The notes beneath the pieces were generated by a model. It saw only the letters and a list, made by a program, of their open reading frames with translations, searched no databases and was not told the DNA's origin. Made by a program: the position numbers and the translations under genes. A stretch of 64,000 nt of DNA from Terriglobia bacterium (GTDB taxonomy: Bacteria > Acidobacteriota > Terriglobia > Bryobacterales > Bryobacteraceae): assembly GCA_963796675.1 (NCBI GenBank), contig CAWCMS010000020.1:630540-694539 (forward strand). The letters are read 5' to 3'. Numbering within the stretch: position 1 is the first letter of the stretch; every line of letters begins with the position of its first letter. Shown here piece by piece: positions 9,792 to 22,691 of the stretch.

Positions 9792-9818
9792 GGGACCACC
9801 ACCGTCCGGGGTGGTCCC
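9792..9818 (-). terminator. Hairpin that closes the unknown four-gene operon and separates it from the atp operon
   Basis: GGGACCACC-accgtccgg-GGTGGTCCC, a perfect 9-bp stem, about 45 nt after the stop at 9861. No strong U-tract. Confidence 0.45.
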
Positions 9819-9860
9819 GATCGACCGCAGAACTCCTGAAGTGTCTTTCCTTGCCTCCTT

Positions 9861-10796
9861 TCAGGCGGCCTGTCCCTTGGCCATTGCTGGAACAAGATTG
9901 AGCGAGCGCCTCGTCTCCGGCCCGGCTCCGTTCTCGGTGATTCCCGCTGATTGCTGCCATTTCTTGACCAGCGCATCCGTGAATGGGCCGTAAACGCCGT
10001 CCGCCGTGCTTTCCAGGCCCTTGGCGGCGAGGGCGCGTTGCAGTGCCGCCACGTCTTCGCCGCGGAGGTAGGGTGTGGTGAGTCGTAGCGTCCTTGCGGA
10101 ATCGCCGGGCGCCGGCGTGTCACCGCCCGCCAGCGCTTCTTCCGTGATCAGGACACCATGGACGCGAAATGGCAGCGTGAGGTCGAAGTTGCCGGCGTCG
10201 ATCAGTGTCTTGAAGGAGTCCATCCGGTAGACCGTGGCGGGGACGGGAGGCTGGCGGCTGGCCAGCCAATCGCGCCGCATCTGCACATATTGTGCGACCC
10301 AATCCTTTTCGCCCCGGGCTGCGACCTTGCCGATCCGCGCCGCCAGCGTCCCCCACCCGCCCTGAACATGGCTGTCATAAACCACGGTTTGGCCGAGCGC
10401 GGTAGTCACACCGAAGGCTTCCGCGTCGCTGCAGGCAGGCCCGAGGAAGGTCTGATTGAAGTACAGATCCTGTGTCGCCTGCATGACGGGGTCTTCCTTC
10501 GCCGCCTTCACCAGTAGGGCTTTTACGTCGGAATCGGTATCGAGCGTAGTGTCCCGCTCCTCGAAGCGATGCAAGAGAGGCTTCAAGTCCGGAGCGAAGA
10601 GTGCACCCGGCTGGGAACAATACAGGTCCAGCAGTTTGAACAGATTGCCGCTGCCCAGGCTGACCTGGCTGCGTCCATACGAGAGATGGCCGCTGTCGCC
10701 TTTGATTACCGTAACGGCGCCGTAGTCGCCTCGGACCTTGCCGGTCTCAAATACGTTGACCACGGCCCGGCACGCCTGTTTTTGTAACGAGTTCAC
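9861..10796 (-). CDS. GH46 (chitosanase/lysozyme-fold) hydrolase fused to a C-terminal PG_binding_1 domain, with no signal peptide
   Basis: GTG start at 10796 with GAGGA 8 nt upstream; the longer track ORF (to 10910) overlaps the upstream gene. From memory of the Streptomyces N174 chitosanase, three segments align. VVNVFETGKVRGDYGAVTVIKGDSGHLSYGRSQVSLGSGNLFKLLDLY matches VSSAENSS..YIEDIGDGRGYTGGIIGFCSGTGDMLELVQHY, and the catalytic Glu and Asp are conserved. ATQDLYFNQTFLGPA matches AQNDERDRVYFDPA, and AGNFDLTLP matches AGNLDLNPP. The C-terminus LRGEDVAALQRALAAKGL..DGVYGPFTDALVKKWQQSAGI is a classic peptidoglycan-binding repeat. Confidence 0.75.
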   Translation of the reverse strand: MNSLQKQACRAVVNVFETGKVRGDYGAVTVIKGDSGHLSYGRSQVSLGSGNLFKLLDLYCSQPGALFAPDLKPLLHRFEERDTTLDTDSDVKALLVKAAKEDPVMQATQDLYFNQTFLGPACSDAEAFGVTTALGQTVVYDSHVQGGWGTLAARIGKVAARGEKDWVAQYVQMRRDWLASRQPPVPATVYRMDSFKTLIDAGNFDLTLPFRVHGVLITEEALAGGDTPAPGDSARTLRLTTPYLRGEDVAALQRALAAKGLESTADGVYGPFTDALVKKWQQSAGITENGAGPETRRSLNLVPAMAKGQAA

Positions 10797-10813
10797 TTCG
10801 ATATCCTCGCTTT

Positions 10814-12997
10814 CTAGGCCGCCCCATGCGAAATCGTGAAGTTCACTTCTGCGCGCTGGCCATCCGGGTTCACCAACGCGAACGTGTGCGAGCCGCCCGC
10901 GGCGAACCACTTACCCACCTGGTCGCGCTGGGCCGAAACCAGTCGCGATGGATCGATCGTGAACCGCAGCGCCTTTGCAAATGTGGGATTCACTTCGTCG
11001 CGGCTAACCACGTCGGGAGCGTTCGCGCCGTCCTGGTTGAAGAGCAATTGGAACGAAAGATCGGCATTGTCGATCTGTGCCAGCCCATCCGGCGAAAGGT
11101 TGGTACCGCGAAGTTCGATGCGGCGCGTAACTACGGCAGGCCTCTCTTCCGCGTTGAGCGGAGCGGCAGCCGCCGTAGCAATGGCGGCAGTCACCCCTGC
11201 GGTAAGATCCTGCAACGCAACAGCCGCCTGCTGGGCGGCCTGCGCCTCGGCCGGACTGGCTTTGGGAGGCGTCGCGGCGAAGTCATTGGCGACCCGCGCG
11301 GCGGTTCCTTCCGCGGTATCGCGGAACTTGGCGAGATCGGCGACCAACTGGTTGAAGTCGTTCGCGGTATGAGCAGCCGCGGCCTCGTCCACTGCCCCCT
11401 TTAAGGCCGCAACCGCCGGCCCAGCCGCGGCGCCCGCTGACGACAGACCGGCCAGTGCCGCCCGGCCACTGACCACGGCTGACACCACGTCAGGCAATGC
11501 CGGGGGAGGCGCCGACTGTGCACGCAAAGCATCATCGGAATCCGGCGGATCCACCCCGATCGCGGAGATAACCGGGCCTGCCTTGCGCGCGATCTTGCCG
11601 CCCAGGTAGCCGACGGACGAGATCCCCATCATAACCAGCAGCCGGTCCGGAATCGTCGGCAGTTCGGTGATCGTGCCGGGAGCCATCTGCAGCACGGCGT
11701 AAACGAACATGCCGATACCCAGTAAGGTCCACAGCAACATTTGCATGCGGTCGGGTGCGACGACGCCCCCACTCGTGACGAAGTCGGCCAGCGAGGGATG
11801 CTGGTCGCCGGCGCCCTTCGACCCCCGAGTGGCAGTCACGATCTGTGAACCGATCGCCGTCCCCGCCGCAACCAGGATGATACCCGGCAGATTAGCCGGA
11901 ACGTCGGGCCAGGTTGGTAAGTGCTGTACATAAACCCGGCTGATGAACAGGTACGAGTAGGCGAACAATGCCGCCACCGTCCACAAATAGAACTGGAGTT
12001 TCGAAAGGCTGTAGGTGTCGGTTTCCTCGTCCAGGAAGAGCATCCGCAACCGGTAGTCTCCCTCCCCGATGCGATAGCTCTTTTTTACAAACATGATCAG
12101 GAGCAAAGGCAGCAGTCCGAGAATGAGCGCGACCAGTGCGGCAATGCTCGTCACGACACTGCTGCCGATCGGAAACACACGGAGCAGTTGCGACGTTCCC
12201 GGGCTATCTCCAAACCCGGCGGCGAAGACCAGTTGGCCGCTATCCGGAGCAGGCACATAGCAAAGCTCGGCCTCGTCGCTGCCGTTCACTTTTCCGTGGA
12301 TCGCGTGGTCCTTAGGCGCGTTCTTGCTGCCGAGTGTTTCCGGGCCGCAGGCGCCGTCCCACTGAATCTTCTGGCGGGCCTCATTGATCCAGACGGCGAT
12401 ACCCTGGCCTTTTTCCGTTGCGGTCTTCTCGTGCTCGGAATCCGAGAAGAGGAACCCGTTTCCGCGCAGAACCACTCCGATGGTCTCGAAGGCTCGCACC
12501 TTTCCGTCCTTCTTTTCGTAGAAGGGCATAGTGCCGTAAATGTCGGCCGGGTCGAACCGGTTGAGCGTCACGACTCCGCCGCCAACCGGCCCAACGACGA
12601 CGTCATCCACCTTCTGGCCTTCCGCTACCAGGGGCTGGCCGTTCAAAATCGCCTGCACCGCATAGGTGCCGAACGGCAGGTCCTGACCGATCGTAGCCGT
12701 GATCAGGCCCGGACTCTGGCCGGCCGCCGGCTGGTAATCCACATCGTTGGCCACCGTGACCGAGCCTGCGCGGATGAGGCGCACCTCGGCGGTTGTTTTC
12801 TGGGTCGGGCCATCTCTCACTACGATGCGAATAGCATCGCCGGACGAGACGTATGCGGTCTCGACTTTGACGGTGCTGATGACCTTTTCCGTGGAAGACG
12901 CAGCCGCCGGAGCGGCCCACACCGCGATTCCCGGAAGCGCCACGCCGGCAAACAAAACAACGCGACTGAGACGATAAGCAGTTTGTCTCGGAATCAT
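10814..12997 (-). CDS. Unknown 727-aa membrane protein: signal peptide, beta-sandwich ectodomains, 5 TM helices, and a cytoplasmic Ala-rich + beta-sandwich tail
   Basis: ATG at 12997 preceded by GAGGAGGG. Begins MIPRQTAYRLSRVVLFAGVALPGIAVWAAPAAASS. TM candidates are VVTSIAALVALILGLLPLLLIMFV, LQFYLWTVAALFAYSYLFISRVYV, GIILVAAGTAIGSQIVTA, MQMLLWTLLGIGMFVYAVLQMA and LLVMMGISSVGYLGGKIA. K/R residues follow TM1, TM3 and TM5 (positive-inside rule). No family motif recognised. Confidence 0.7.
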   Translation of the reverse strand: MIPRQTAYRLSRVVLFAGVALPGIAVWAAPAAASSTEKVISTVKVETAYVSSGDAIRIVVRDGPTQKTTAEVRLIRAGSVTVANDVDYQPAAGQSPGLITATIGQDLPFGTYAVQAILNGQPLVAEGQKVDDVVVGPVGGGVVTLNRFDPADIYGTMPFYEKKDGKVRAFETIGVVLRGNGFLFSDSEHEKTATEKGQGIAVWINEARQKIQWDGACGPETLGSKNAPKDHAIHGKVNGSDEAELCYVPAPDSGQLVFAAGFGDSPGTSQLLRVFPIGSSVVTSIAALVALILGLLPLLLIMFVKKSYRIGEGDYRLRMLFLDEETDTYSLSKLQFYLWTVAALFAYSYLFISRVYVQHLPTWPDVPANLPGIILVAAGTAIGSQIVTATRGSKGAGDQHPSLADFVTSGGVVAPDRMQMLLWTLLGIGMFVYAVLQMAPGTITELPTIPDRLLVMMGISSVGYLGGKIARKAGPVISAIGVDPPDSDDALRAQSAPPPALPDVVSAVVSGRAALAGLSSAGAAAGPAVAALKGAVDEAAAAHTANDFNQLVADLAKFRDTAEGTAARVANDFAATPPKASPAEAQAAQQAAVALQDLTAGVTAAIATAAAAPLNAEERPAVVTRRIELRGTNLSPDGLAQIDNADLSFQLLFNQDGANAPDVVSRDEVNPTFAKALRFTIDPSRLVSAQRDQVGKWFAAGGSHTFALVNPDGQRAEVNFTISHGAA

Positions 12998-13034
12998 TGG
13001 TCTTCCCTCCTCATAGGAAGAAACTCCGGTCCGT

Positions 13035-14060
13035 TCATTCCCCCGCTTCTGCCGCGGCAGCTTGCGCCTCCACGGTATACAGCGGATCGAAGGCATGCAG
13101 TCCTTCGCGCTTCGCGGTCATCCATCGCATCGCATAGACCACGCGCGGATCGGTCAGCCCTTTCGTGATCCAATTGGGAATGACCTCCAGCAACGCGTGC
13201 GCGGCGACGTCCTTGTAATAGTCGATATCCGGCTCGATCTTGACGCAGGAAATCTGGTTCTGATTCTCATCCGTAAAAGTGGTCGTATCGGTTCCGTGGA
13301 AGGTAAGTTGGACGTTGGCCATATCGAACTGAGTCTGCTTGTAGCTTTCCGTCGCGTCGGTGTGTCCCCACGCCTGGGGGTCCGGCTCGCGCGAGAAGCC
13401 ATGGCCGTTTGCGGCCCGAACATCGGGTAGGATCGCCCGATCCACATAACAAAAGAAGCGGTCCTGCTTGAAGATGGTGTCCAGGTTGCGGAACCAGGCC
13501 GGATCCTTCCAATCTCCCGCCGGCCAGGCGATGTTCCAGTAGTATTCGAGCGCACACTTGCCGGATGGAAGCACGATGTCCGCCAGGGCCGTCACGATAT
13601 TCAGAAAACAGGCCAGAGCTGCCGGCCGGTTCTCCATCACCGCCGAGTACTTGTCCGCGCTCGCCTCAGGGCTTTCGCAACCGCGCCGGATCATTTGAGC
13701 CACTCCCGAGCGGGACTGCTGGAGCTTGCTCCACGTGGCGTTGGCGAAGTGCGGAACCCCGTCTTTCGGCAGAAACATCAGGTCCAGATTCACGGGCGCT
13801 TCGTCGGTAACGGGCACGGGATACCACGCGGAGTTGTCATAGCCGCCGGCTTCGGCGATCACCGTGTACAGGTCTCCGAAGTTATCGAAATACGGCACCG
13901 TGAGGATTGCCGACGCGCCCGTAACATTGAAGTAGAGAGTTTGCTGCCCGTCCGCTTGTGACCTGCCGTCGCGAGTCTGTACGGACCATCTCTTGTCGTT
14001 GGGAAACAACTGCCGCGCCCCATCGTAGGCGTGCAATACGATATTCGCTGTGTCCGGCAT
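13035..14060 (-). CDS. Unknown 341-aa soluble protein
   Basis: ATG at 14060 preceded by GGGGAGG. No signal peptide, no TM segment and no motif I recognise. The spacer to the upstream gene is 24 nt and to the downstream gene 37 nt. Confidence 0.65.
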   Translation of the reverse strand: MPDTANIVLHAYDGARQLFPNDKRWSVQTRDGRSQADGQQTLYFNVTGASAILTVPYFDNFGDLYTVIAEAGGYDNSAWYPVPVTDEAPVNLDLMFLPKDGVPHFANATWSKLQQSRSGVAQMIRRGCESPEASADKYSAVMENRPAALACFLNIVTALADIVLPSGKCALEYYWNIAWPAGDWKDPAWFRNLDTIFKQDRFFCYVDRAILPDVRAANGHGFSREPDPQAWGHTDATESYKQTQFDMANVQLTFHGTDTTTFTDENQNQISCVKIEPDIDYYKDVAAHALLEVIPNWITKGLTDPRVVYAMRWMTAKREGLHAFDPLYTVEAQAAAAEAGE

Positions 14061-14084
14061 CTGAAACCTCCCCGGCCGACCTGG

Positions 14085-16334
14085 CTACAACTGCCCCGCT
14101 GCTGCCTGGACCGCCGCCGCGGGCACCACGGCGAGAGCGGGCGGGTGCCCGCGCTCCACCAGGAAGGTCTTGCACGATGCCTTTCCGTAAGCGGTGTCCG
14201 GCGATCCTCCCGCCCAATACAGGCACACCATTCCCCACGGCTCCGCAAACCGCATCTTACTGGCCTTGACCATCGCGGCCAGGGCCTTTTGCAGGGAGTC
14301 GCGCTTCTTCTTGAATTCGTTGTTCTGCATCAACTGGTTGACGTCGGAATCTCCGACGAACTTGCGCATGTCCAGCACCAGCTTCCCGGCGTCAGCCATG
14401 CCGCCCGCCCAGTCGACGATGTCCATCACATCGCCAATCAGAAACTCCACGCGTGGATCGGCGGTACTCAACCCCACCAGAGGTCCGAGGTTGACATTGG
14501 CGCCGATCTCATACGCCTGCGGCCACTTATCGTCGACGATCCGATAGCGCAGTTGATCGATCGCCTGATGGTCGGGATCGAGAAGTGCGCGCAAAGCCTG
14601 CCGGGCAGTCGTCAGGTAGTGATCCTGATCCCAGAGCGTATCAGCGGTCCTGAGGAACATCGATGCACAGTCGGAATCCGTGAACGAAGTTCGAAGAATG
14701 CACGTGGAAGGTCCGCCGTCGATGAACTGAGCGAGAATGCTTGCCTTATCGGGCTTGCTTAATAGGTTTAAGGCCACAAACCAACTCAGGTAGTCCCCCA
14801 TGGTCTGGTGGTTCGTGCTCTGATTCAGAGCAAAGTGCATCTGCTCGCAGTCCAGCTCGGGGAGAGCCACGGCCTTCCCCGCGCGGTAACTGGTCGTCAT
14901 GAGGACGGAATCGAAGATCGCCTTGCGCAGAGCCTCGTGCCGGTCGAGCGGACTGACAATCGCGTTGATCCGGTTCCCGGTGACCGTCTCCTTGATGGTA
15001 ATGTCTCCACTGACGTCATCCGTTACCACCTCGCTGTTCCGGATCAACTCGGAAACGCTCAGGTAGTTCAGAATCCCGAGGAGGTTCAGCTTGAGCGTCG
15101 ATCCCCGCTTTCGCATCTCCGAAAACGCACTGTTGAGCATCCGGATTCCCGGAGCCAGAATGCCGCCGTCCTGCATGGTGGCCTCCATTTCCGTGAGCCC
15201 GGTGAGATCTCCGTCCAATGCTCTGTGAACCGCGGCGGAGCCCTCGGCGCTCAACTGCCCCGTCTGGACCACATACTGGAACGCCGCCTGGTCGTCGGTC
15301 ACGGCCGACAGGGCCAGATCGAGCGATGCCTGCAAACTGTGGTCTAATCCGCTCTTGATTGCGGTTGCGAGCGTCGTGAGCTCTTGCGGATTCAGATCGG
15401 AAAGAAGCTGCTGGTCTTTCGTCGGGTCGCTGGTGCTGATGGCCCCCAGCAGCGCCGCGATCAGATCGGTATCCCCGATGGACGCCTGGATACCCGCTGA
15501 GGCGGAAAGGTCGACGGTGAGGTTGGTCCCTTTCTCTTTCAGATAACTGAGCTGGATCGTGCCCGGTCCCGTGCGTTGCACCCTCACCTGGTATGAGCCC
15601 GAAATCGTGAACGCGGCCGACAATCCGGCCGTGGCTCCGGCTTTCACCGCAACCGTTCCCAGTCCCAAAGGCAAATCCGCCGACGCCAGGGGATTCGGCG
15701 AGGCGGTCACACTGACGGCACCCGATATCTTCAGGCTCCCGCTGCCCGATACCGTGGCGATGTCGTTAGTTCCCAGTAAGTCGAGGTCCGAAACATCGGC
15801 GGGAATGACAAAGCACGATAACGCCTGGCCCAGCGCACTTCCCACTGTAGGCTCGCCCGCGCCTGACTCGAAAGCTTTCCAGTATTCCAGAGCGATGCTG
15901 CCCGACTTATCGAGACCGAACGTGAGATCACCGGCCGAGCCGCTCACACCGAGGTCGAGCGATCCCTGGAACCCGACCGACAAGTAGCCGGTGCCGGGCG
16001 CAATCGTCGCTGGAACCTGGAATGGATCGCCGTCGAAAAGGTCCGCGTTGGGCGCGGTATTCACTTGGATCGTCGCGTGAGCGCCCGGCGTCACGTCAAT
16101 CTCCGGGTTGGTGCTGCCGAGTTCGAACTCATGCTGGACGTTGGCGTCGAACCGGACCGGTTTCTTGTTTCCCACTTGACTAATTGGAATATCTTTGACC
16201 CCCAGAAAGTCGGGGAGGACGGCAAGGTGGAGAAGTTCCGTCTTGAGATATTTGACCAAAGACGAAGGATGGGCCAGATCTATCTGGATACCGGGCACGG
16301 GAATGCCCTGATCGGTTACTTGTATGTCGGCCAT
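14085..16334 (-). CDS. Unknown 749-aa soluble protein (G/S/T/A-rich beta-type N-terminal half, helical C-terminal half)
   Basis: ATG at 16334 with AGGAG about 10 nt upstream. No signal peptide, no TM segment, no Walker, HExxH or other catalytic motif recognised. First gene of the operon. Confidence 0.7.
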   Translation of the reverse strand: MADIQVTDQGIPVPGIQIDLAHPSSLVKYLKTELLHLAVLPDFLGVKDIPISQVGNKKPVRFDANVQHEFELGSTNPEIDVTPGAHATIQVNTAPNADLFDGDPFQVPATIAPGTGYLSVGFQGSLDLGVSGSAGDLTFGLDKSGSIALEYWKAFESGAGEPTVGSALGQALSCFVIPADVSDLDLLGTNDIATVSGSGSLKISGAVSVTASPNPLASADLPLGLGTVAVKAGATAGLSAAFTISGSYQVRVQRTGPGTIQLSYLKEKGTNLTVDLSASAGIQASIGDTDLIAALLGAISTSDPTKDQQLLSDLNPQELTTLATAIKSGLDHSLQASLDLALSAVTDDQAAFQYVVQTGQLSAEGSAAVHRALDGDLTGLTEMEATMQDGGILAPGIRMLNSAFSEMRKRGSTLKLNLLGILNYLSVSELIRNSEVVTDDVSGDITIKETVTGNRINAIVSPLDRHEALRKAIFDSVLMTTSYRAGKAVALPELDCEQMHFALNQSTNHQTMGDYLSWFVALNLLSKPDKASILAQFIDGGPSTCILRTSFTDSDCASMFLRTADTLWDQDHYLTTARQALRALLDPDHQAIDQLRYRIVDDKWPQAYEIGANVNLGPLVGLSTADPRVEFLIGDVMDIVDWAGGMADAGKLVLDMRKFVGDSDVNQLMQNNEFKKKRDSLQKALAAMVKASKMRFAEPWGMVCLYWAGGSPDTAYGKASCKTFLVERGHPPALAVVPAAAVQAAAGQL

Positions 16335-16424
16335 CGGTTGGCGCTCCTATTCTGGAAATTGCTTCCAGTGATATTAGCGTGAACCGATTGAAAGGGGGCC
16401 ACCTTTTTCGGATATTTCTTAAGT

Positions 16425-16448
16425 GACGCGGGAGATGACTCCCGCGTC
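16425..16448 (-). terminator. Perfect hairpin terminating the upstream NHL gene
   Basis: GACGCGGGAG-atga-CTCCCGCGTC, a 10-bp stem with a 4-nt loop, 17 nt after the stop at 16465. No U-tract. Confidence 0.5.
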
Positions 16449-16464
16449 GTCATTCGACCAGTAC

Positions 16465-19400
16465 TTACTTCTTAATCGAAAGTACCATTCCGCTCGGCGA
16501 CGAGACCCCGCCGATTGCTGCCACGATCGGCCAGTCGCCGTCGGCCAGCGTCGACGGCACCTGGATTGCCACCTGGTACAGTCCCACGAAGCCGGGGGCC
16601 AGCGCCGCCCCGTAGACTGTCGCCGGGACGTTATCGATCGTTACCGTGGGCGGCGTGCTCGTGGAGTAGGTCTGGGTCGAAGGCACCTGCACCCCCGTCG
16701 GCGCCGCGGGACTCGTCGGGCCGAAGCCCGTGCCCCAGAGGATGAGTACGTCTCCGGGCTTCGCCGGCACTGTCGTGGATCCGGCCCAGGTGCCGTTCTT
16801 GGCCGCAAAGCTGTAATCCTGGAGTGTCGCCACTACCTGATTGTTCGGCCACGGGAAGAATGCCGGAGCATACAGGCTCGAGGCCACCGTGAATGTCGAA
16901 CTTGTGCCGGAGGGCGTGGTCACCGTGACCTGCGTGGAGCCCTGCGCCACGTCCGGCGCCAGGATGTTGATCTGTGTCGGACTCACGTAATAGATGTACG
17001 CCGGCTTGTCCCCCACTTTGACCGACACGCCGTCGAGGGACGTGGGCAGCACGCCGTTGACGATCGCGTTCGCCCAGGTATCGGTCACCGGCGAGAGGTT
17101 CGCGCCCAGGATCGTCACCCAGGAGTTTGCCACCAGCCCTGCCTGGAAACTCGCGCCGTTCACGATCCCGTTCGACGAAATGCCCGGCGCGGCCGATCCG
17201 CCGCCGCCCGTCGTCACCTTGCGTACCCGATTGTTGGACGTATCGGCGATATACAGGTTGCCCGCGCTGTCCACCGCCACGTCGCTGGGATTGTTCAGCC
17301 CGGCGTTCACCGCGGGGCTCCCGTCGCCCGAGAAGCCGGCGATCCCGTTGCCTGCCACCGTCGTGATGATTCCGGACGTGTCCACCTTCCGGATCCGGTT
17401 ATTCGCGGCGTCCGCGATGTAGAGGTTGCCGGACGAGTCCGTCGCGAGCCCCGCGTGCGATCCGTACAAGGCGATCGCCGCCGAGGTGCCCGCTCCGCCG
17501 TCACCGGAATAGGCCTTGGAGCCCATGCCCGCCACCGTCGAAATGATGCCCGCCGTATTTACCTTGCGCACCCGGTAATTGCCGATATCCGCAATGTAGA
17601 GGTTCCCCGATGCATCCACCGCGACTCCTCCGGGCAGGAAGAGCCCCGCTCCCACGGCCGGGCCGCCATCGCCCGAATAGATCGGCAGCACCGCCCCGCC
17701 CGCCACCGTGCTGATGACTCCTGCAGTGTCCACCTTGCGGACGCGGGAATTCGCGCTGTCGGCGATGAACAGGTTCCCCGCACTATCCACCGCCAGACCG
17801 GCCGGCGCCCAGAGCGTCGCGCTGGTCGCCGGTCCGCCATCCCCCGAGAATCCGACCTTCCCGTTGCCCGCCACCGTGTTGATGTTTCCCGAGGTATCCA
17901 CCTTGCGCACTCGGTTATTGGTGCTGTCGGCGATGTAGACATTGCCCGCGCGATCGGCGGCCACCGCGCTCGGATTGAACAGCGCCGCTTTCGTCGCCGG
18001 CCCGCCATCGCCCGAGAAGCTGATCGCCCCGTTGCCCGCGAGCGTCGTAATCGTGCCCGCTGTATCGATTTTCAGCACGCGGCTGCTCACCATATCCGCG
18101 ACGTAGAGGTTCCCCGCGCCATCCACCGCGACCGCGTTCGCCCCCAGCGCAGCCTTCGTGGCCGAGCCTCCTTCGCCGGAATACGGAATGAATCCGTTGC
18201 CCGCCGCCGTCGAGATGACGCCCTGACTGGCGGGAGAGTTGACTGTCAACTTCACCGGCACCGTTTGCGGCGTATTACCCGACCCGCTCGGCGTGATCGT
18301 GATGGTGCCGTTATAACTGCCCGCCGCGAGGCCAGCGGGATTCACCGAGACCGTCAGCGTCGTTCCCACCGTGCCGCTCGACGGACTGACCGAAAGCCAG
18401 TTCCCTCCCGAGGTGGTCGAAGGCGTCGCCGTAAACGTCAGGGTCGCTCCCGGACTGATGATGACCACAGTCTGACCCGGCGGCGCCGCGGCCCCCACCG
18501 TATAGGAGTACGAGAGCGACGACGGACTAACCGTCACCGGCGATCCCGAGGCGCCCGACAACACTTTGCGCACGCGGGCTGCCCCACTGTCCGCAATGTA
18601 TACGTTGCCTGCCGCGTCCACCGCCACACTCGTAATGTTGATGAAGTTTGCGCTGGTGGCTGCTCCGCCATCGCCATTGCCCTGCCCGGTATTCAACCCG
18701 CCGCCCGCAAATGTGCTGATGATCCCGGACGTGTTCACTTTGCGAACGCGCGCTCCTCCCGTATCGGCAAGGTAGAGGTTGCCGTCGGCATCCACAGTCA
18801 CCCAGGTAACCGTCATCCCCGCCTTCGTGGCCGGGCCTCCGTCACCGATCGCGATCGGAGTGCCGCTGCCCGCCACCGTCGTGATGATCCCGTTGGTATC
18901 CACTTTGCGGACGTGTGTGGCGTTGTCCGCAAAATAGAGATTACCCTGGCGGTCCACCGCCAGCCCCTGCGGCAGATACAGCTTCGCGCTGGTCGCCGGA
19001 CCGCCATCCCCCGAGTAGCCCTGCTGGCCGCTGCCCGCCACCGTAGTAATGATTCCGCTGGTGTCGATCTTGCGGATACGGTTGTTCAGGCTATCGGCCA
19101 GATATAGATTTCCGGCGCTATCCGCCACGACGTTCGTGCACAGAAACGTGGCACTCGTCGCCGGACCGCCATCGCCCGAAAAGCCCGGCAGTCCGGTTCC
19201 CGCGACGGTGCTGATCACCCCCGCCGTGTTGACCTTGCGGATACTCGCACCTTGCGCGATGTACAGATTGCCGGCGCCATCCACCGTCACACTGCCTGGA
19301 AAAACCTGCGCGTTCGTCGCCAATCCACCGTCGCCGCCGCCGATCGCACTCCCGCCGCCCGCCACGGTGGTAATGATGCCGGACGCATCGACCTTGCGGA

Positions 19401-19614
19401 TCCTGTTGTTGCCTCCGTCCGAGATCAGCAGGTTTCCCGAGTTATCGACCGCGACCGTAAGTGCACCGCCGAGCTTCGCGCTGGTCGCCTGGCCGCCATC
19501 GCCCGAGTAACCGCCGCTGCCGGTCCCCGCTACGGTAGTGATGGTCGCCTGCGCATGGCAGGGCGCCGCGGCAGTAAGTACCGCAAAGAAAGAGAGATAA
19601 GGAGTAAGTTTCAT
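16465..19614 (-). CDS. Secreted double NHL-propeller protein (6+6 blades) with a BACON-like Ig domain and a TIGR03437-like C-terminal domain
   Basis: Start at 19614 (MKLTPYLSFFAVLTAAAPCHAQ), 9 nt after the stop of the upstream paralogue; the track ORF to 19956 is an over-extension. There are twelve copies of the unit GDGGPATSA..P.G.AVD.AGNLYIAD..N.R.RKV...G.I.T.AG. The Ig-type segment reads SLSYSYTVG...GGNWLSVSPSSGT..TLTVSVNPAGL. The tail reads IVNGASFQ...YVSPTQINILAP...GFVGLYQVAIQVP. Confidence 0.85.
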   Translation of the reverse strand: MKLTPYLSFFAVLTAAAPCHAQATITTVAGTGSGGYSGDGGQATSAKLGGALTVAVDNSGNLLISDGGNNRIRKVDASGIITTVAGGGSAIGGGDGGLATNAQVFPGSVTVDGAGNLYIAQGASIRKVNTAGVISTVAGTGLPGFSGDGGPATSATFLCTNVVADSAGNLYLADSLNNRIRKIDTSGIITTVAGSGQQGYSGDGGPATSAKLYLPQGLAVDRQGNLYFADNATHVRKVDTNGIITTVAGSGTPIAIGDGGPATKAGMTVTWVTVDADGNLYLADTGGARVRKVNTSGIISTFAGGGLNTGQGNGDGGAATSANFINITSVAVDAAGNVYIADSGAARVRKVLSGASGSPVTVSPSSLSYSYTVGAAAPPGQTVVIISPGATLTFTATPSTTSGGNWLSVSPSSGTVGTTLTVSVNPAGLAAGSYNGTITITPSGSGNTPQTVPVKLTVNSPASQGVISTAAGNGFIPYSGEGGSATKAALGANAVAVDGAGNLYVADMVSSRVLKIDTAGTITTLAGNGAISFSGDGGPATKAALFNPSAVAADRAGNVYIADSTNNRVRKVDTSGNINTVAGNGKVGFSGDGGPATSATLWAPAGLAVDSAGNLFIADSANSRVRKVDTAGVISTVAGGAVLPIYSGDGGPAVGAGLFLPGGVAVDASGNLYIADIGNYRVRKVNTAGIISTVAGMGSKAYSGDGGAGTSAAIALYGSHAGLATDSSGNLYIADAANNRIRKVDTSGIITTVAGNGIAGFSGDGSPAVNAGLNNPSDVAVDSAGNLYIADTSNNRVRKVTTGGGGSAAPGISSNGIVNGASFQAGLVANSWVTILGANLSPVTDTWANAIVNGVLPTSLDGVSVKVGDKPAYIYYVSPTQINILAPDVAQGSTQVTVTTPSGTSSTFTVASSLYAPAFFPWPNNQVVATLQDYSFAAKNGTWAGSTTVPAKPGDVLILWGTGFGPTSPAAPTGVQVPSTQTYSTSTPPTVTIDNVPATVYGAALAPGFVGLYQVAIQVPSTLADGDWPIVAAIGGVSSPSGMVLSIKK
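17209..19545 (-). repeat. Intragenic tandem NHL-blade repeats (two blocks of six, about 55-58 codons each)
   Basis: The protein-level periodicity is listed under the CDS. Blocks map to roughly 18559-19545 and 17209-18222, separated by the Ig-like domain. The repeats are coding, not intergenic. Confidence 0.7.
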
Positions 19615-19622
19615 GGGTAACC

Positions 19623-22600
19623 TTATTGAACCGGCAGATTCTTTGAATAGGCCTGGACCGCGGAGAAGCCCGCGAAGGCCGCTTTCCCTCCGCCCGTCAA
19701 CGGCGCGGTGAAGGGCTGCGAATTGACTACCTCGACCGCCAGCGTCGTCGAACCGTTCGCGAGCGACGCGGCGTCCAGCGTGCCCGGCAGCAGGCTCGCG
19801 AGCACCGCAGCGGGAATCGTGTAGGAACCCGGCGCCGCCGGGACCTGGCAGGTAAAGCCCGTCGTGTGGAGGATGTTGGAGTTCGACGCATCCTTCCCCA
19901 CCACCGCATAGCTTCCTCCGATAATGTAGACTTGGCCCGATCCGCCGCCGGTCCAATTCAGGGTGAGCGGCTGGCTCCGGTTGATGGAAGATACCGAACT
20001 CCAGTTAGTAATTACGAAGTTATTCGGAAACGTAACCGAGGCGGTGAACGATCCTACGCCCTTACCGCCGCTGCCGGCGATCGTATAATTGCCGCCGGCC
20101 GCAATTGTCCCGCTGTTGAGCACCAGCCCGTAGATCGGACCTGGATTGCTGCTGAGCACCGTCATCGCCGCGCCCGCCGCCAGTCCCGGGCCCGCGACCG
20201 GCAGAGTCGCCCCCGCATCCAGGTAGGCGTTCGGCGCAGCCGGATTGGACGCGTTCGTCCCCGTCCGGTCCGTCACCGTGCAATCGCCGATCCGTGTGCC
20301 CGCGAAGATCGCCGCGTATTCCGCCGCGGTATAGACACTGAAGCCCCCGCTGACGATCTCCTGACTTGCGGTGGTCGTAGTCGGCGTAGTCCCCACGATG
20401 TAAGTCGAGATGGCCTGGGTCTTGGAAACCTCGAGCCCGCCGCCCACCACGGTGCCTCCGTTATCCAGCGACGCGAGCGCGCTCGAATCCAGTTGGGAGT
20501 CGGTACATGCGCTCTGCCCGCCCGCCGCAATCGGGATGGTCACCGTATTGCTCAGCTCTCCGCCCGCACTGACCTGCAACGAGGTGAAGCATCCCGTCGT
20601 GATATCGGAGGGAATCGTAAAGTTCACCTGCCAGAGCCCCGGATACCCCGACGAAGCGCCCGCATAGAGAGGCGTGATCGGCCGACCTCCCACGATCACG
20701 CTGAAATTGCCCGCCTGGGTCTGATCTCCGGATGTGCCGCCCGTATCGTTGGCCGCGTCGGCGCCGCCGCCCGTGCCCCACAGCACCAGCGTGTCGCCGG
20801 GATGAGCAGGCGTGAGCGTCCAATTCAGTCCGCCGAACCCAATGCTGCCGCTGGTGAACCGCGTGAGGCTCACCCCGCCGTTCACATTGCCGATGGTGGC
20901 CTGCGCCGTCCCGGTTCCCGCGCTGTTCGCGGTCGCGATGCCGAAGCTGCGCGCCACGACCGTCACGTTTTGCGGCGCACTGGCCAGGGTGTTGTAAGTC
21001 ACCCGCACCGCATAGGTGCCCGGTGCAATCGAGGATGGCAAGAGCCCCGCCACCTGCCCCGCCGACGTATACACGATCTTTGCATTGATCGCGGTGCCGC
21101 CTCCCTGCGGAGTAAACGTGATCGAAGTTCCGCTCAAACTTTGCGGGTAGTTCGGACCGCTGCCGGTGGCGAGCGCCGCCGGCCCCATGCCGCTGCCGAA
21201 GATCACGAACACCGTATCCGGCGCCAGCTTCGCCTGGTACCCCAGGGCGTTGAGGACGCTGCTCGCGCTGAAGACAGGAGCGCCCGCGCCCGTCACCGTC
21301 AGCGTCACCGAAAAGGTCTGCGGCGATGTTCCGGAAGAGCTTGGCGTCAACGTGACCGCTCCCTGATACACGCCGCCGGGCAGCCCCGCCGGGTTGACCG
21401 ACACCGTCAGCGTAGCCGGAGCCGTTCCGCTCGCGGGGCTGACCGACAGCCAGTTGCCGCCCGAAGTCGTCGAGGCCGCTGCCGTAAAGCCCAGGCCAGA
21501 GCTCGAAGCCGTCACGCTGACGGTTTGACTCGCCGGACTCGCGCCGCCGATCGTGTAAGCGAACGAGAGCGAAGTCGGACTCGTCGACAGGCCCACTGCG
21601 GCCGCGATCTTCCGAACCCGCGCCACGCCCCCCGCGCTCCCCGCCACATAGAGGTTGCCCGACGCATCCAGCACGACGTCTTTCGGGACGCCGAGAAACG
21701 CGCTGGTTGCCGGCCCTCCGTCGCCGATCGGCGTCGATGCGTTACCATCGATTCCCGCGTAGGTTGAGATGATCCCCGCGGCGTCCACCTTGCGGATCCG
21801 GCTGTTGCCGTTGTCGGCGATGTAGAGATTGCCCGAGTGGTCCACCGCCAGCCCGATCGGTCCGGACAGCGTAGCCGCCGTCGCCGGACCTCCGTCGCCC
21901 GTGAACCCGTTGGTCTTGGTGGTCTGCCCCGCGATCGTGTGGATGATGCCGGCCGTATCCACCTTCCGCACGCGCGAATTGCTGGTCTCCGAAATGTAAA
22001 CGTTGCCTGCATCGTCGGTCGCTACGCCCTCCGGCCGGGACACTGCCGACGTATTCGCCGCCACGCCGTCGCCCGAATAGCTGACGTTCCCGTTGCCGGC
22101 GAAGGTGCTGATGATCCCCGCCGCCGTCACCTTGCGTACACGGCTATTCGAGGAGTCCGCGATATAGAGGTTGCCCGCGCTATCGAGCGCGATCCCGGCC
22201 GGGAAGTCGAGTTGCGCGCTGGTGGCCTGGCCGCCGTCGCCTGAAAATCCCGGCGCCCCGGTCCCCGCCACGGTGCTGATGATCCCCGCGGCGTTGACCT
22301 TGCGCACCACGTGGTTCTCACCGTCGCTGATGTACAGGTTCCCGGCCGAATCCACTGCCAGCCCGTATACGCTCCCGTTGGCAAAGATTTGCGCGCTAGT
22401 GGCCGAACCGCCATCCCCCGTGTAGCCCGGCATCCCGTTCCCCGCCACCGTCGTGATCACACCGGACGGGTTCACCTTGCGGACCTTGCTCGATTGCCCG
22501 TCCCAGATGTACAAATTCCCCGACCGGTCGAGTGTGATTCCCCCCGCCGACGGCAGCCATGTGCTGGTCGCCTGCCCGCCGTCCGCCGAATTGCAGCAGG

Positions 22601-22691
22601 TCGAAGACCCCGCCACCGTCACGATCGTCCCCTGCGCATGGCACAAGCCGGCCGCCATCCCAAACACCGCGATCCGTAACCCGTTTTTCAT
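19623..22691 (-). CDS. Secreted NHL-propeller protein (6 blades) with a BACON-like Ig domain, a TIGR03437-like domain and a C-terminal region of about 310 aa that I cannot assign
   Basis: Begins MKNGLRIAVFGMAAGLCHAQ, followed by six NHL units, then SLSFAYTIGG..GGNWLSVSPASGTAPATLTVSVNPAGL, then ...YPGLWQVNFTIP. It is a paralogue of the downstream gene. Confidence 0.85.
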   Translation of the reverse strand: MKNGLRIAVFGMAAGLCHAQGTIVTVAGSSTCCNSADGGQATSTWLPSAGGITLDRSGNLYIWDGQSSKVRKVNPSGVITTVAGNGMPGYTGDGGSATSAQIFANGSVYGLAVDSAGNLYISDGENHVVRKVNAAGIISTVAGTGAPGFSGDGGQATSAQLDFPAGIALDSAGNLYIADSSNSRVRKVTAAGIISTFAGNGNVSYSGDGVAANTSAVSRPEGVATDDAGNVYISETSNSRVRKVDTAGIIHTIAGQTTKTNGFTGDGGPATAATLSGPIGLAVDHSGNLYIADNGNSRIRKVDAAGIISTYAGIDGNASTPIGDGGPATSAFLGVPKDVVLDASGNLYVAGSAGGVARVRKIAAAVGLSTSPTSLSFAYTIGGASPASQTVSVTASSSGLGFTAAASTTSGGNWLSVSPASGTAPATLTVSVNPAGLPGGVYQGAVTLTPSSSGTSPQTFSVTLTVTGAGAPVFSASSVLNALGYQAKLAPDTVFVIFGSGMGPAALATGSGPNYPQSLSGTSITFTPQGGGTAINAKIVYTSAGQVAGLLPSSIAPGTYAVRVTYNTLASAPQNVTVVARSFGIATANSAGTGTAQATIGNVNGGVSLTRFTSGSIGFGGLNWTLTPAHPGDTLVLWGTGGGADAANDTGGTSGDQTQAGNFSVIVGGRPITPLYAGASSGYPGLWQVNFTIPSDITTGCFTSLQVSAGGELSNTVTIPIAAGGQSACTDSQLDSSALASLDNGGTVVGGGLEVSKTQAISTYIVGTTPTTTTASQEIVSGGFSVYTAAEYAAIFAGTRIGDCTVTDRTGTNASNPAAPNAYLDAGATLPVAGPGLAAGAAMTVLSSNPGPIYGLVLNSGTIAAGGNYTIAGSGGKGVGSFTASVTFPNNFVITNWSSVSSINRSQPLTLNWTGGGSGQVYIIGGSYAVVGKDASNSNILHTTGFTCQVPAAPGSYTIPAAVLASLLPGTLDAASLANGSTTLAVEVVNSQPFTAPLTGGGKAAFAGFSAVQAYSKNLPVQ
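21606..22631 (-). repeat. Intragenic tandem NHL-blade repeats (six copies)
   Basis: Same repeat unit as in 17209-19545; coding. Confidence 0.65.

Follow-up and report, generated by a model that had tools for sequence, protein, structure and literature searches.

The closest described systems to the one reported here are phage lysis cassettes, with their holin/endolysin pairs, and type 10 secretion, whose phage-derived examples comprise Serratia ChiW/ChiX, the Tc-toxin-releasing lysis cassette of Yersinia entomophaga and C. difficile TcdE/TcdL (PMC10847048, PMC10109510, PMC10516005). Here we analyze a block of four genes, A, B, C and D, located on one strand of a 64,000-nt stretch of DNA from a Terriglobia bacterium (Acidobacteriota, Bryobacteraceae), which is referred to in its full length as the window. 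The secretion and conflict biology of soil Acidobacteriota is, to our knowledge, almost unstudied. The block consists of two independently conserved pairs, A-B and C-D, and is not one conserved unit. The C-D pair, a membrane protein followed by a leaderless wall hydrolase, is a real, conserved and unannotated module that crosses phyla.

An initial annotation, made from the DNA letters alone, had described the block as an autonomous four-gene unit that joins cytoplasmic proteins, a dedicated membrane protein and a wall-cutting enzyme, an interpretation that the comparative analysis presented below partly supports. Its description of the genes corresponds to what is found in the open reading frames (ORFs) and the sequence, including the short gaps and the four purine-rich Shine-Dalgarno (SD) motifs. 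A (14085-16334, minus strand, 749 aa) is preceded by AGGAG and B (13035-14060, minus, 341 aa) by GGGGAGG, while C (10814-12997, minus, 727 aa) starts at an ATG behind GAGGAGGG, within an ORF that reaches 13096, and D (9861-10796, minus, 311 aa) starts at a GTG behind GAGGA. The intergenic gaps are 24 nt (A/B), 37 nt (B/C) and 17 nt (C/D), and the public gene calls on the single 771,702-bp contig are exactly the A, B, C and D products. A, B and C, which the annotation could not place, stay so after profile searches, with no significant match in Pfam, NCBIfam, PADLOC or PHROGs. Sequence and profile searches of the PDB gave nothing useful for A and B and no relative of C, and structure searches with models of A and B placed neither protein in a family (see below).

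The C family comprises 201 clusters at 90% identity, distributed in Acidobacteriota, Geomonas sp. RF6 and metagenome-assembled genomes (MAGs) labelled Steroidobacteraceae and Vicinamibacterales. Of the 83 C loci examined, exact look-ups gave 4 and a scan of metagenomes gave 79 (compared homologous loci are labelled L001 and so on); the pairing with D was counted over the 50 close-homologue loci that extend 300 nt or more downstream of C. The pairing is near-obligate: D is directly downstream of C in 49 of these 50 loci, which belong to several phyla, Geomonas sp. RF6 and a Steroidobacteraceae-labelled MAG among them, with gaps ranging from -4 to about +70 nt.

Thirty of the C loci hold more distant members of the family, which keep the transmembrane (TM) core and the C-terminal domain (hidden Markov model, HMM, E values from 1e-85 to 1e-134) and mostly lack D. 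A muralytic enzyme adjoins C in 12 of the approximately 26 distant loci with room to judge, and its type changes from locus to locus. A GH108 domain with PG_binding_3 overlaps the C stop in one locus (L140), and a Glucosaminidase (GH73) domain with PG_binding_1 is found 6 nt upstream of C in another (L122). Downstream of C we found SLT with PG_binding_1 in three loci (L119, L120, L141), PG_binding_1 with GH19 in three (L124, L125, L130) and GH46 with PG_binding_1 in four (L113, L121, L128, L131). No leader is present in the two N-termini that were read among the swapped hydrolases, those of the GH108 and GH73 enzymes. The exchange of one enzyme type for others beside a constant C is, by analogy, the pattern of phage lysis cassettes and of type 10 secretion (PMC10847048, PMC10109510). 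Since the substrate of muralytic enzymes is a polymeric glycan found only outside the membrane, a leaderless hydrolase would need an exit route, for which C is the obvious candidate.

Concerning D, Pfam identifies a Glyco_hydro_46 domain (E 8.5e-13, 48.9 bits over a cut-off of 27) and a C-terminal PG_binding_1 domain (E 7e-10), which agrees with the lysozyme-fold, peptidoglycan-binding and export-less enzyme proposed in the initial annotation. The N-terminal 210 residues belong to the GH46 family, a member of the lysozyme superfamily (PMC2976769), and the match begins at residue 13, hence there is no room for a signal peptide; hydropathy shows no hydrophobic segment either. D aligns with the Bacillus chitosanases 7c6c and 7c6d (PDB), its FETG lying over the FENG of 7c6c, so that the catalytic Glu is kept; the deposited variant 7c6d has an Ala in place of that residue. 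By eye, the D family also displays a GD(S/T)GHL(S/T)YG motif at the site of the chitosanase catalytic Asp and Thr, a placement that leans on E22, D40 and T45 of the Streptomyces N174 enzyme, which we take to be the equivalent positions. No signal peptide was found in the approximately 48 D-family members examined. In about 20 loci the C stop and the D start overlap as ATGA, which pins the D start and means that the family opens directly with the GH46 domain, with no leader. Taken together, D is the candidate wall hydrolase of the module, and its substrate is likely to be peptidoglycan, maybe N-deacetylated (cf. the lysozyme DslA, PMC7511926), and not chitosan.

C displays a signal-like N-terminus, a variable extracytoplasmic region, a core of 4-5 TM segments, an Ala-rich linker and a C-terminal Ig-like domain. 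The signal peptide-like N-terminus of the initial annotation is thus present, and its five TM helices become 4-5, as hydropathy yields three strong and two weak hydrophobic segments besides the N-terminal one. The beta-sandwich ectodomains that were also proposed are only suggested, by IPT/TIG-like motifs and by one homologue with PF01833. Following the positive-inside rule, the positive residues after TM1, TM3 and TM5 would make both the Ala-rich linker and the C-terminal Ig-like domain cytoplasmic. The alignment of homologues reveals extremely conserved core motifs (LFLDPETDTYSLSKLQFYLWT ... KGSKGAG ... TSGGV.APDR.QM ... GYLGGK.ARK.GPV), and, combined with hydropathy, locates the most conserved residues of the family in predicted cytoplasmic loops and in the TM core. 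C is a candidate gate or exporter for D.

The neighbourhoods of C-D pairs, or of C-like genes, contain Peptidase_C1, patatin-like, TIR_2, SLOG (LD_cluster2), Lipase_3, alpha/beta hydrolase and eCIS_core (DUF4157)+M35-like peptidase genes. A set of four genes (143 aa, ~432 aa, a ~500-aa distant Dyp-type-peroxidase-like protein and ~408 aa), none of them with a firm family, accompanies C-D in L067 (14091-18562), L078, L079, L081, L083, L084 and L088, located either immediately before C or shortly after D. In L147, the locus of the closest C-D homologue, a TPR-CHAT protease-like protein and a sigma-70-family gene are encoded some 6.5 kb upstream of the pair (L147:552-3419).

The first two genes of the block tell a separate story. 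As initially described, A and B have neither signal peptide nor TM segment: hydropathy reveals no suitable hydrophobic segment in A, and the single hydrophobic stretch of B, which shows no export signal, is a buried helix in its AlphaFold2 model. The A model, of moderate confidence (predicted local distance difference test, pLDDT, of 76), presents a beta-rich N-terminal third with long hairpins (approximately residues 60-300) and a largely helical remainder. Foldseek retrieved nothing for it in the PDB (best E = 0.45) or in BFVD. A gasdermin-type pore former was considered for A and is not supported, with no gasdermin entry among the 50 best PDB matches of this pLDDT 76 model, and other known pore-former folds are likewise unsupported, with no match in the PDB or BFVD. 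The B model (pLDDT 89.5) combines an N-terminal transthyretin/Ig-like sandwich with a C-terminal alpha/beta domain. Only the sandwich is matched in the PDB, residues ~110-341 having no structural relative, and it is in this part that the alignment shows invariant H/E/D-rich motifs (H..ATESYKQTQFD and VKIEPDIDYYKD..H..E), which look catalytic or metal-binding.

The A family contains 348 homologues, and 595 representatives at 50% clustering among 1.84 billion proteins, while the B family contains 1446 homologues (90% identity clusters) with 36-76% identity across orders. A scan with the B profile over one genome per species retrieved 50 loci, nearly all from Acidobacteriota. A adjoins B in about 13 of them, even at loci where identity to the window proteins falls to 36-40% for B and 28-31% for A. 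Either gene may come first, and in some loci the two are convergent. Adjacency at such low identity and in varying order indicates a real functional pair. No A-B fusion protein was found among the A-family representatives. In L013 (19595-21005, minus strand) a degraded A-family gene, broken up into three frames, is found ~9 kb away from an intact B gene, which looks like the decay of one pair partner; tandem B-family genes, 34-37% identical to window B, occur at L047:8349-10957 and L059:10001-12493, indicating, as judged from the sequences, local duplication of B. A 723-aa neighbour of the A homologue in L001 was considered as a possible C-like protein, and BLAST shows that it is unrelated.

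The recurrent companion of A-B is a GMC oxidoreductase (L149/150, L014, L030, L036, L038, L045, L061) of 1100-1300 aa with a ~550-aa unannotated C-terminal extension (e.g. L149:434-3829 and L061:12999-16376, minus strand). Its best NCBIfam match, the cholesterol oxidase ChoxAB, is far below cut-off. A FAD_binding_4 oxidase and a GFO/IDH/MocA oxidoreductase often accompany it. Other companions of A-B are a PF04185 phosphoesterase and a lipase-like protein, and none of the N-termini inspected in the GMC, PF04185 and lipase-like enzymes carries a signal peptide. A solitary A homologue (L002:598-4458) sits among SLATT_1/SLATT_3, patatin and MAP3K_TRAF_bd/TPR-S genes, a neighbourhood that would be typical of biological-conflict islands. 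Distant A homologues carry C-terminal fusions to Peptidase_C11 (P0403, P0442) or to caspase-like Peptidase_C14 (P0404), and others, such as P0429, an unannotated alpha/beta-hydrolase-like domain with a GHSAG motif.

A family that we call c5 relates the two pairs. Its members (~1050-1160 aa, with no TM segment, no match in Pfam or NCBIfam and no useful one in PDB searches) are the commonest gene directly upstream of C, whose start they overlap (by 4 or 20 nt) or abut in L064/65/68, L072, L077, L095/106, L105, L121 and L127; in L133/134 c5 is found just downstream of C. hhalign detects homology between residues 70-298 of A and positions 117-361 of c5 (probability 96.7%, E 4e-10). The c5 HMM matches many A-family representatives with E values down to 1e-14, reaching into the helical region that follows, and a 742-aa neighbour of B in L057 (Chloroflexota) matches the merged N-domain profile with E 1.4e-17. 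A is, on these profile comparisons, a shorter member of a superfamily whose c5 branch is coupled to C-D. Since both families are rare, some ten independent adjacencies are, by a rough estimate, not expected by chance. The N-terminus of one c5 member (L072:2627-6118), a protein that also matches Toastrack/DUF4097 weakly, resembles that of a lipoprotein (LALAGC), a hint that conventional export may apply to part of the superfamily.

Other genes are shared between the neighbourhoods of both pairs. A B-like gene follows C-D in one locus (L116, HMM E 3e-23). Family c8 (~1130-1235 aa, many TM segments), for which hhalign shows no relation to A, adjoins B in L013, L023 and L028 and is found near C-D in L067, L078, L086, L090 and L108. 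A NAL1-like serine protease is located near B in L052 and overlaps the C start in L089.

From these data, the most likely reading, to which we give an even chance, is that C gates or exports D, that D opens the wall, and that this opening lets A (with B) out or allows it to act. C-D would then do outside phages what a holin/endolysin pair does within them. C, predicted to be a large protein that crosses the inner membrane several times and has its most conserved residues facing the cytoplasm, would let the leaderless D reach the wall, where D would cut the glycan strands. A and B would be two cytoplasmic proteins without export signals, A belonging to the polymorphic A/c5 superfamily, and A with its partner B would act as cargo or effector depending on a local or complete breach of the wall by C-D. 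The role of cargo or effector is proposed because other A/c5 members directly precede C-D or end in protease or hydrolase domains. We infer from gene arrangements and protein features the gating or export of D by C, the dependence of A and B on C-D and the purpose of the whole. The type of logic put forward in the initial annotation, a membrane protein together with a leaderless wall enzyme and leaderless cytoplasmic proteins, holds up and gains support from the C-D pairing, from the hydrolase swaps and from c5 upstream of C.

A wider proposal, which we hold more tentatively and rate somewhat below even chances, is that the C family represents a new class of large non-phage gate in the inner membrane, giving leaderless wall hydrolases of exchangeable catalytic type access to the peptidoglycan, which, with D and A/c5, would constitute a three-part envelope-breaching system. 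The site of action would be the inner membrane for C and the wall for D, and the beta-rich A/c5 protein would be the cargo or act on the outer membrane. Such a system would have spread through Acidobacteriota, been transferred to other phyla, and maybe be triggered by the proteases often encoded with it.

Several observations weigh against C-D as the gate on which A and B depend. The A-B-C-D arrangement of the window is unique among ~130 related loci: C-D was found within 10 kb of B in 0 of the 50 B loci, and A proper is present at none of the other C loci examined. The nearest A-B pairs (68-76% identity) follow a 1131-aa GMC oxidoreductase and are without C-D, and the nearest C homologue (58% identity, L147) occurs as a C-D pair on its own. 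Relatives of A that share 58-70% identity with it often occur singly and in varied contexts (L001-L009); being often solitary, A and B do not need C-D. Moreover, the sequence of C is unlike that of any holin, its length of ~700 aa comparing with roughly 100 aa in holins, and family and PDB sequence searches revealed no transporter or pore similar to it. GH46 enzymes are known as chitosanases, not muramidases. Finally, the block contains no spanin or other outer-membrane component, though the organism is diderm. The autonomous four-gene unit of the initial annotation is not supported. As for the co-occurrence that it proposed to examine, C and a wall hydrolase do travel together. A proper does not accompany C-D elsewhere and a B-like gene does so once (L116); A and B mostly have no hydrolase nearby.

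The same observations feed the strongest alternative, that of a chance juxtaposition, in which an unrelated A-B pair, working with the GMC oxidoreductase and lipid-acting enzymes in a cytoplasmic or membrane process, happens to precede a self-contained C-D pair for wall remodelling. The closest relatives of each pair are unlinked, A-B recurs with GMC oxidoreductases, the PF04185 phosphoesterase and the lipase-like gene, and many C-D pairs stand alone, L066 as well as L147. However, A has a homologue in c5, and the translational coupling of c5 to C, seen in at least 8 distinct loci, goes far beyond what is expected by chance for two rare families. The B-like gene of L116 and the c8 and NAL1-like genes bridge both neighbourhoods, and in the window the B-C gap is as short as 37 nt, with no hairpin in between. 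We thus regard a chance juxtaposition as an unlikely explanation, yet the one that comes closest to competing with release through C-D.

Less probable still would be a suicide or abortive-infection executioner, in which C-D is a lysis effector acting on infection or stress, maybe protease-gated, and A/c5 proteins are sensors or co-effectors and not cargo. The neighbours of C-D (TIR_2, SLOG (LD_cluster2), patatin-like, Peptidase_C1, NAL1-like protease and TPR-CHAT protein) are suggestive in this respect, as are the A homologue within the SLATT, patatin and MAP3K_TRAF_bd/TPR-S island of L002, the fusion of A-like proteins to caspase-like C14 and clostripain C11 domains, and a patchy distribution across phyla. 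By analogy, effector-like partners and fusions of the toxin or suicide-effector enzyme kinds fit a release system or programmed death alike. On the other side, PADLOC yields no match for A, B, C or D at E values up to 1, and the block lies between ATP synthase and NHL-repeat genes and not in a defence island. Typical defence genes evolve fast, whereas A and B retain 60-76% identity within the Bryobacterales, and no nucleotide-signal-generating enzyme is found nearby.

Two other possibilities are very improbable. A remnant of a prophage lysis cassette with an unusually large holin would account for the endolysin-like architecture of D (a leaderless catalytic domain followed by PG_binding_1) and for the PHROG endolysin families that match its PG-binding part. 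Against this, no relative of C was found in 2.9 million IMG/VR contigs (pattern scan) or in 50,697 INPHARED phage genomes (tblastn), nor was a match found in PLSDB plasmids. The GH46 part of D has no match in the phage genomes searched, where only the PG-binding domain matches endolysins, and no phage structural, integrase or terminase gene appears in the loci whose annotation was seen. With no phage match for C or GH46 and no phage genes, the module is not a recognisable prophage remnant. Uptake and catabolism, with C importing chitosan or peptidoglycan fragments to be degraded by D in the cytoplasm, would suit the lack of a leader in D, its chitosanase family and the cytoplasmic conserved face of C, but is equally hard to maintain, as D and its replacements carry PG-binding and endolysin-type domains (SLT, GH108, GH19, GH73) for a polymeric wall that is not in the cytoplasm, and no recurrent sugar-catabolic or transporter genes are found nearby.

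The block is flanked by genes of F-type ATP synthase downstream, D being 154 nt away from the atp operon, and of NHL-repeat proteins upstream. At the upstream end, 17 nt past the stop of the NHL-repeat gene, there is a perfect hairpin with a 10-bp stem (16425-16448, minus strand; GACGCGGGAG-TCAT-CTCCCGCGTC), whose RNA fold has -24 kcal/mol and z = -3.7 compared with shuffled sequences. At the downstream end, 43 nt past the D stop and ahead of the atp operon, a 9-bp inverted repeat (9792-9818, minus; GGGACCACC...GGTGGTCCC) forms its stem in the minimum free energy fold, and its 91-nt region, in GC-rich surroundings, folds no better than shuffles (z = -1.3). Both stems reported in the initial annotation are hence present in sequence and fold. 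Neither is followed by a T-run, and a minus-strand terminator scan called neither of them. Both are true inverted repeats and candidate, unproven terminators, the first being a candidate upstream boundary of the block and the second a possible downstream one. A weaker stem-loop (TTGAAAGGGGGCCACCTTTTTCGG, 16388-16411) is located between the 10-bp hairpin and the A start, and obtained a terminator-like score on the plus strand in the scan.

The upstream NHL-repeat genes are two, very large and in tandem (16465-22691, minus strand). The listed ORF of the first one, of 1163 aa, begins well upstream of an obvious signal peptide (MKLTPYLSFFAVLTAAAPCHAQ), and the true start is probably about 110 codons later. 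It should be noted that the gene caller used, which takes into account the G+C content at third codon positions (GC3), is defeated by the high G+C content at second positions (GC2) of the tandem NHL-repeat genes. GC3 of A-D is 0.72-0.75, compared with a window mean of 0.78 (sd 0.05) and with 0.80-0.86 in most atp genes. This agrees with the compositional hint of the initial annotation, which was offered as weak and stays a weak pointer to foreign origin; horizontal transfer was considered on the basis of composition and set aside, the signal being too weak to use. Bryobacteraceae and Solibacteraceae genomes supply the best homologues, which places the bacterium in the order Bryobacterales.

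Should C indeed gate leaderless wall hydrolases, a holin-like function would exist in a family unrelated to phage holins, and soil Acidobacteriota would have a candidate route by which large signal-less enzymes are released or programmed lysis is carried out. A testable context would also be gained for four unannotated families: A/c5 (~600 clusters at 50%), B (>1400 at 90%), C (~200 at 90%) and c8. The interchange of five muralytic domain types beside one membrane family resembles the genomic signatures through which lysis cassettes and type 10 secretion were recognised earlier, and it predicts that C and D together would damage the wall from within.

In comparison with known systems, D shares with the GH46 chitosanases (7c6c, 6lwu, 1chk) a score above the Pfam threshold and the catalytic Glu, and differs from them in the lack of a secretion signal, the C-terminal PG_binding_1 domain and the obligate pairing with a membrane protein. 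The specialised lytic transglycosylases of type III, IV and VI secretion are likewise wall hydrolases encoded with envelope-acting genes; however, they are Sec-exported and lie inside recognisable machine operons, whereas the block holds no machine components.

Defence suicide effectors (gasdermin with its protease, CBASS/Thoeris) resemble the module in the protease, TIR, SLOG and patatin genes found near C-D and A, and in an output that would consist of envelope destruction. They differ in that PADLOC returns no match and does not recognise the combination of membrane protein and wall hydrolase as a defence system of its catalogue, and in that Foldseek finds no gasdermin-like fold in the A model. 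The A/c5 superfamily, taken as a whole, recalls polymorphic toxins in that an N-terminal beta-rich domain and helical region are combined with variable length and C-terminal domains (C11, C14, hydrolase-like), and an eCIS_core+M35 protein, of the kind that marks some of these toxins (eCIS_core/DUF4157), neighbours a C-like gene. In contrast to these toxins, no known domain for trafficking is seen, no small immunity gene can be identified, A of the window has no recognisable toxin domain, and B is larger and far more conserved than usual immunity proteins.

The closest likeness is with holin/endolysin cassettes and type 10 secretion. They and the present module share a leaderless muralytic enzyme with a wall-binding domain beside a membrane-protein gene, a catalytic type that swaps between related loci, and large signal-less proteins encoded alongside. 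The differences concern mainly C, which has ~700 aa, 4-5 TM segments, an extracytoplasmic region and a ~250-aa cytoplasmic tail, belongs to no holin family in Pfam, NCBIfam or PHROGs and is not in the phage collections searched. The GH46 domain is in no phage genome searched. No spanin is present, since no small lipoprotein or TM ORF was found within the block, and the lack of a recognisable holin, spanin, ATPase or secretin noted in the initial annotation holds. The literature search returned nothing directly relevant on a GH46 with PG-binding/holin system or on this family. Because neither a holin nor a spanin nor phage ancestry was found, the module does not enter the holin/endolysin family, and by analogy it is best filed as one that follows the holin/endolysin, type 10-like logic from outside that family.

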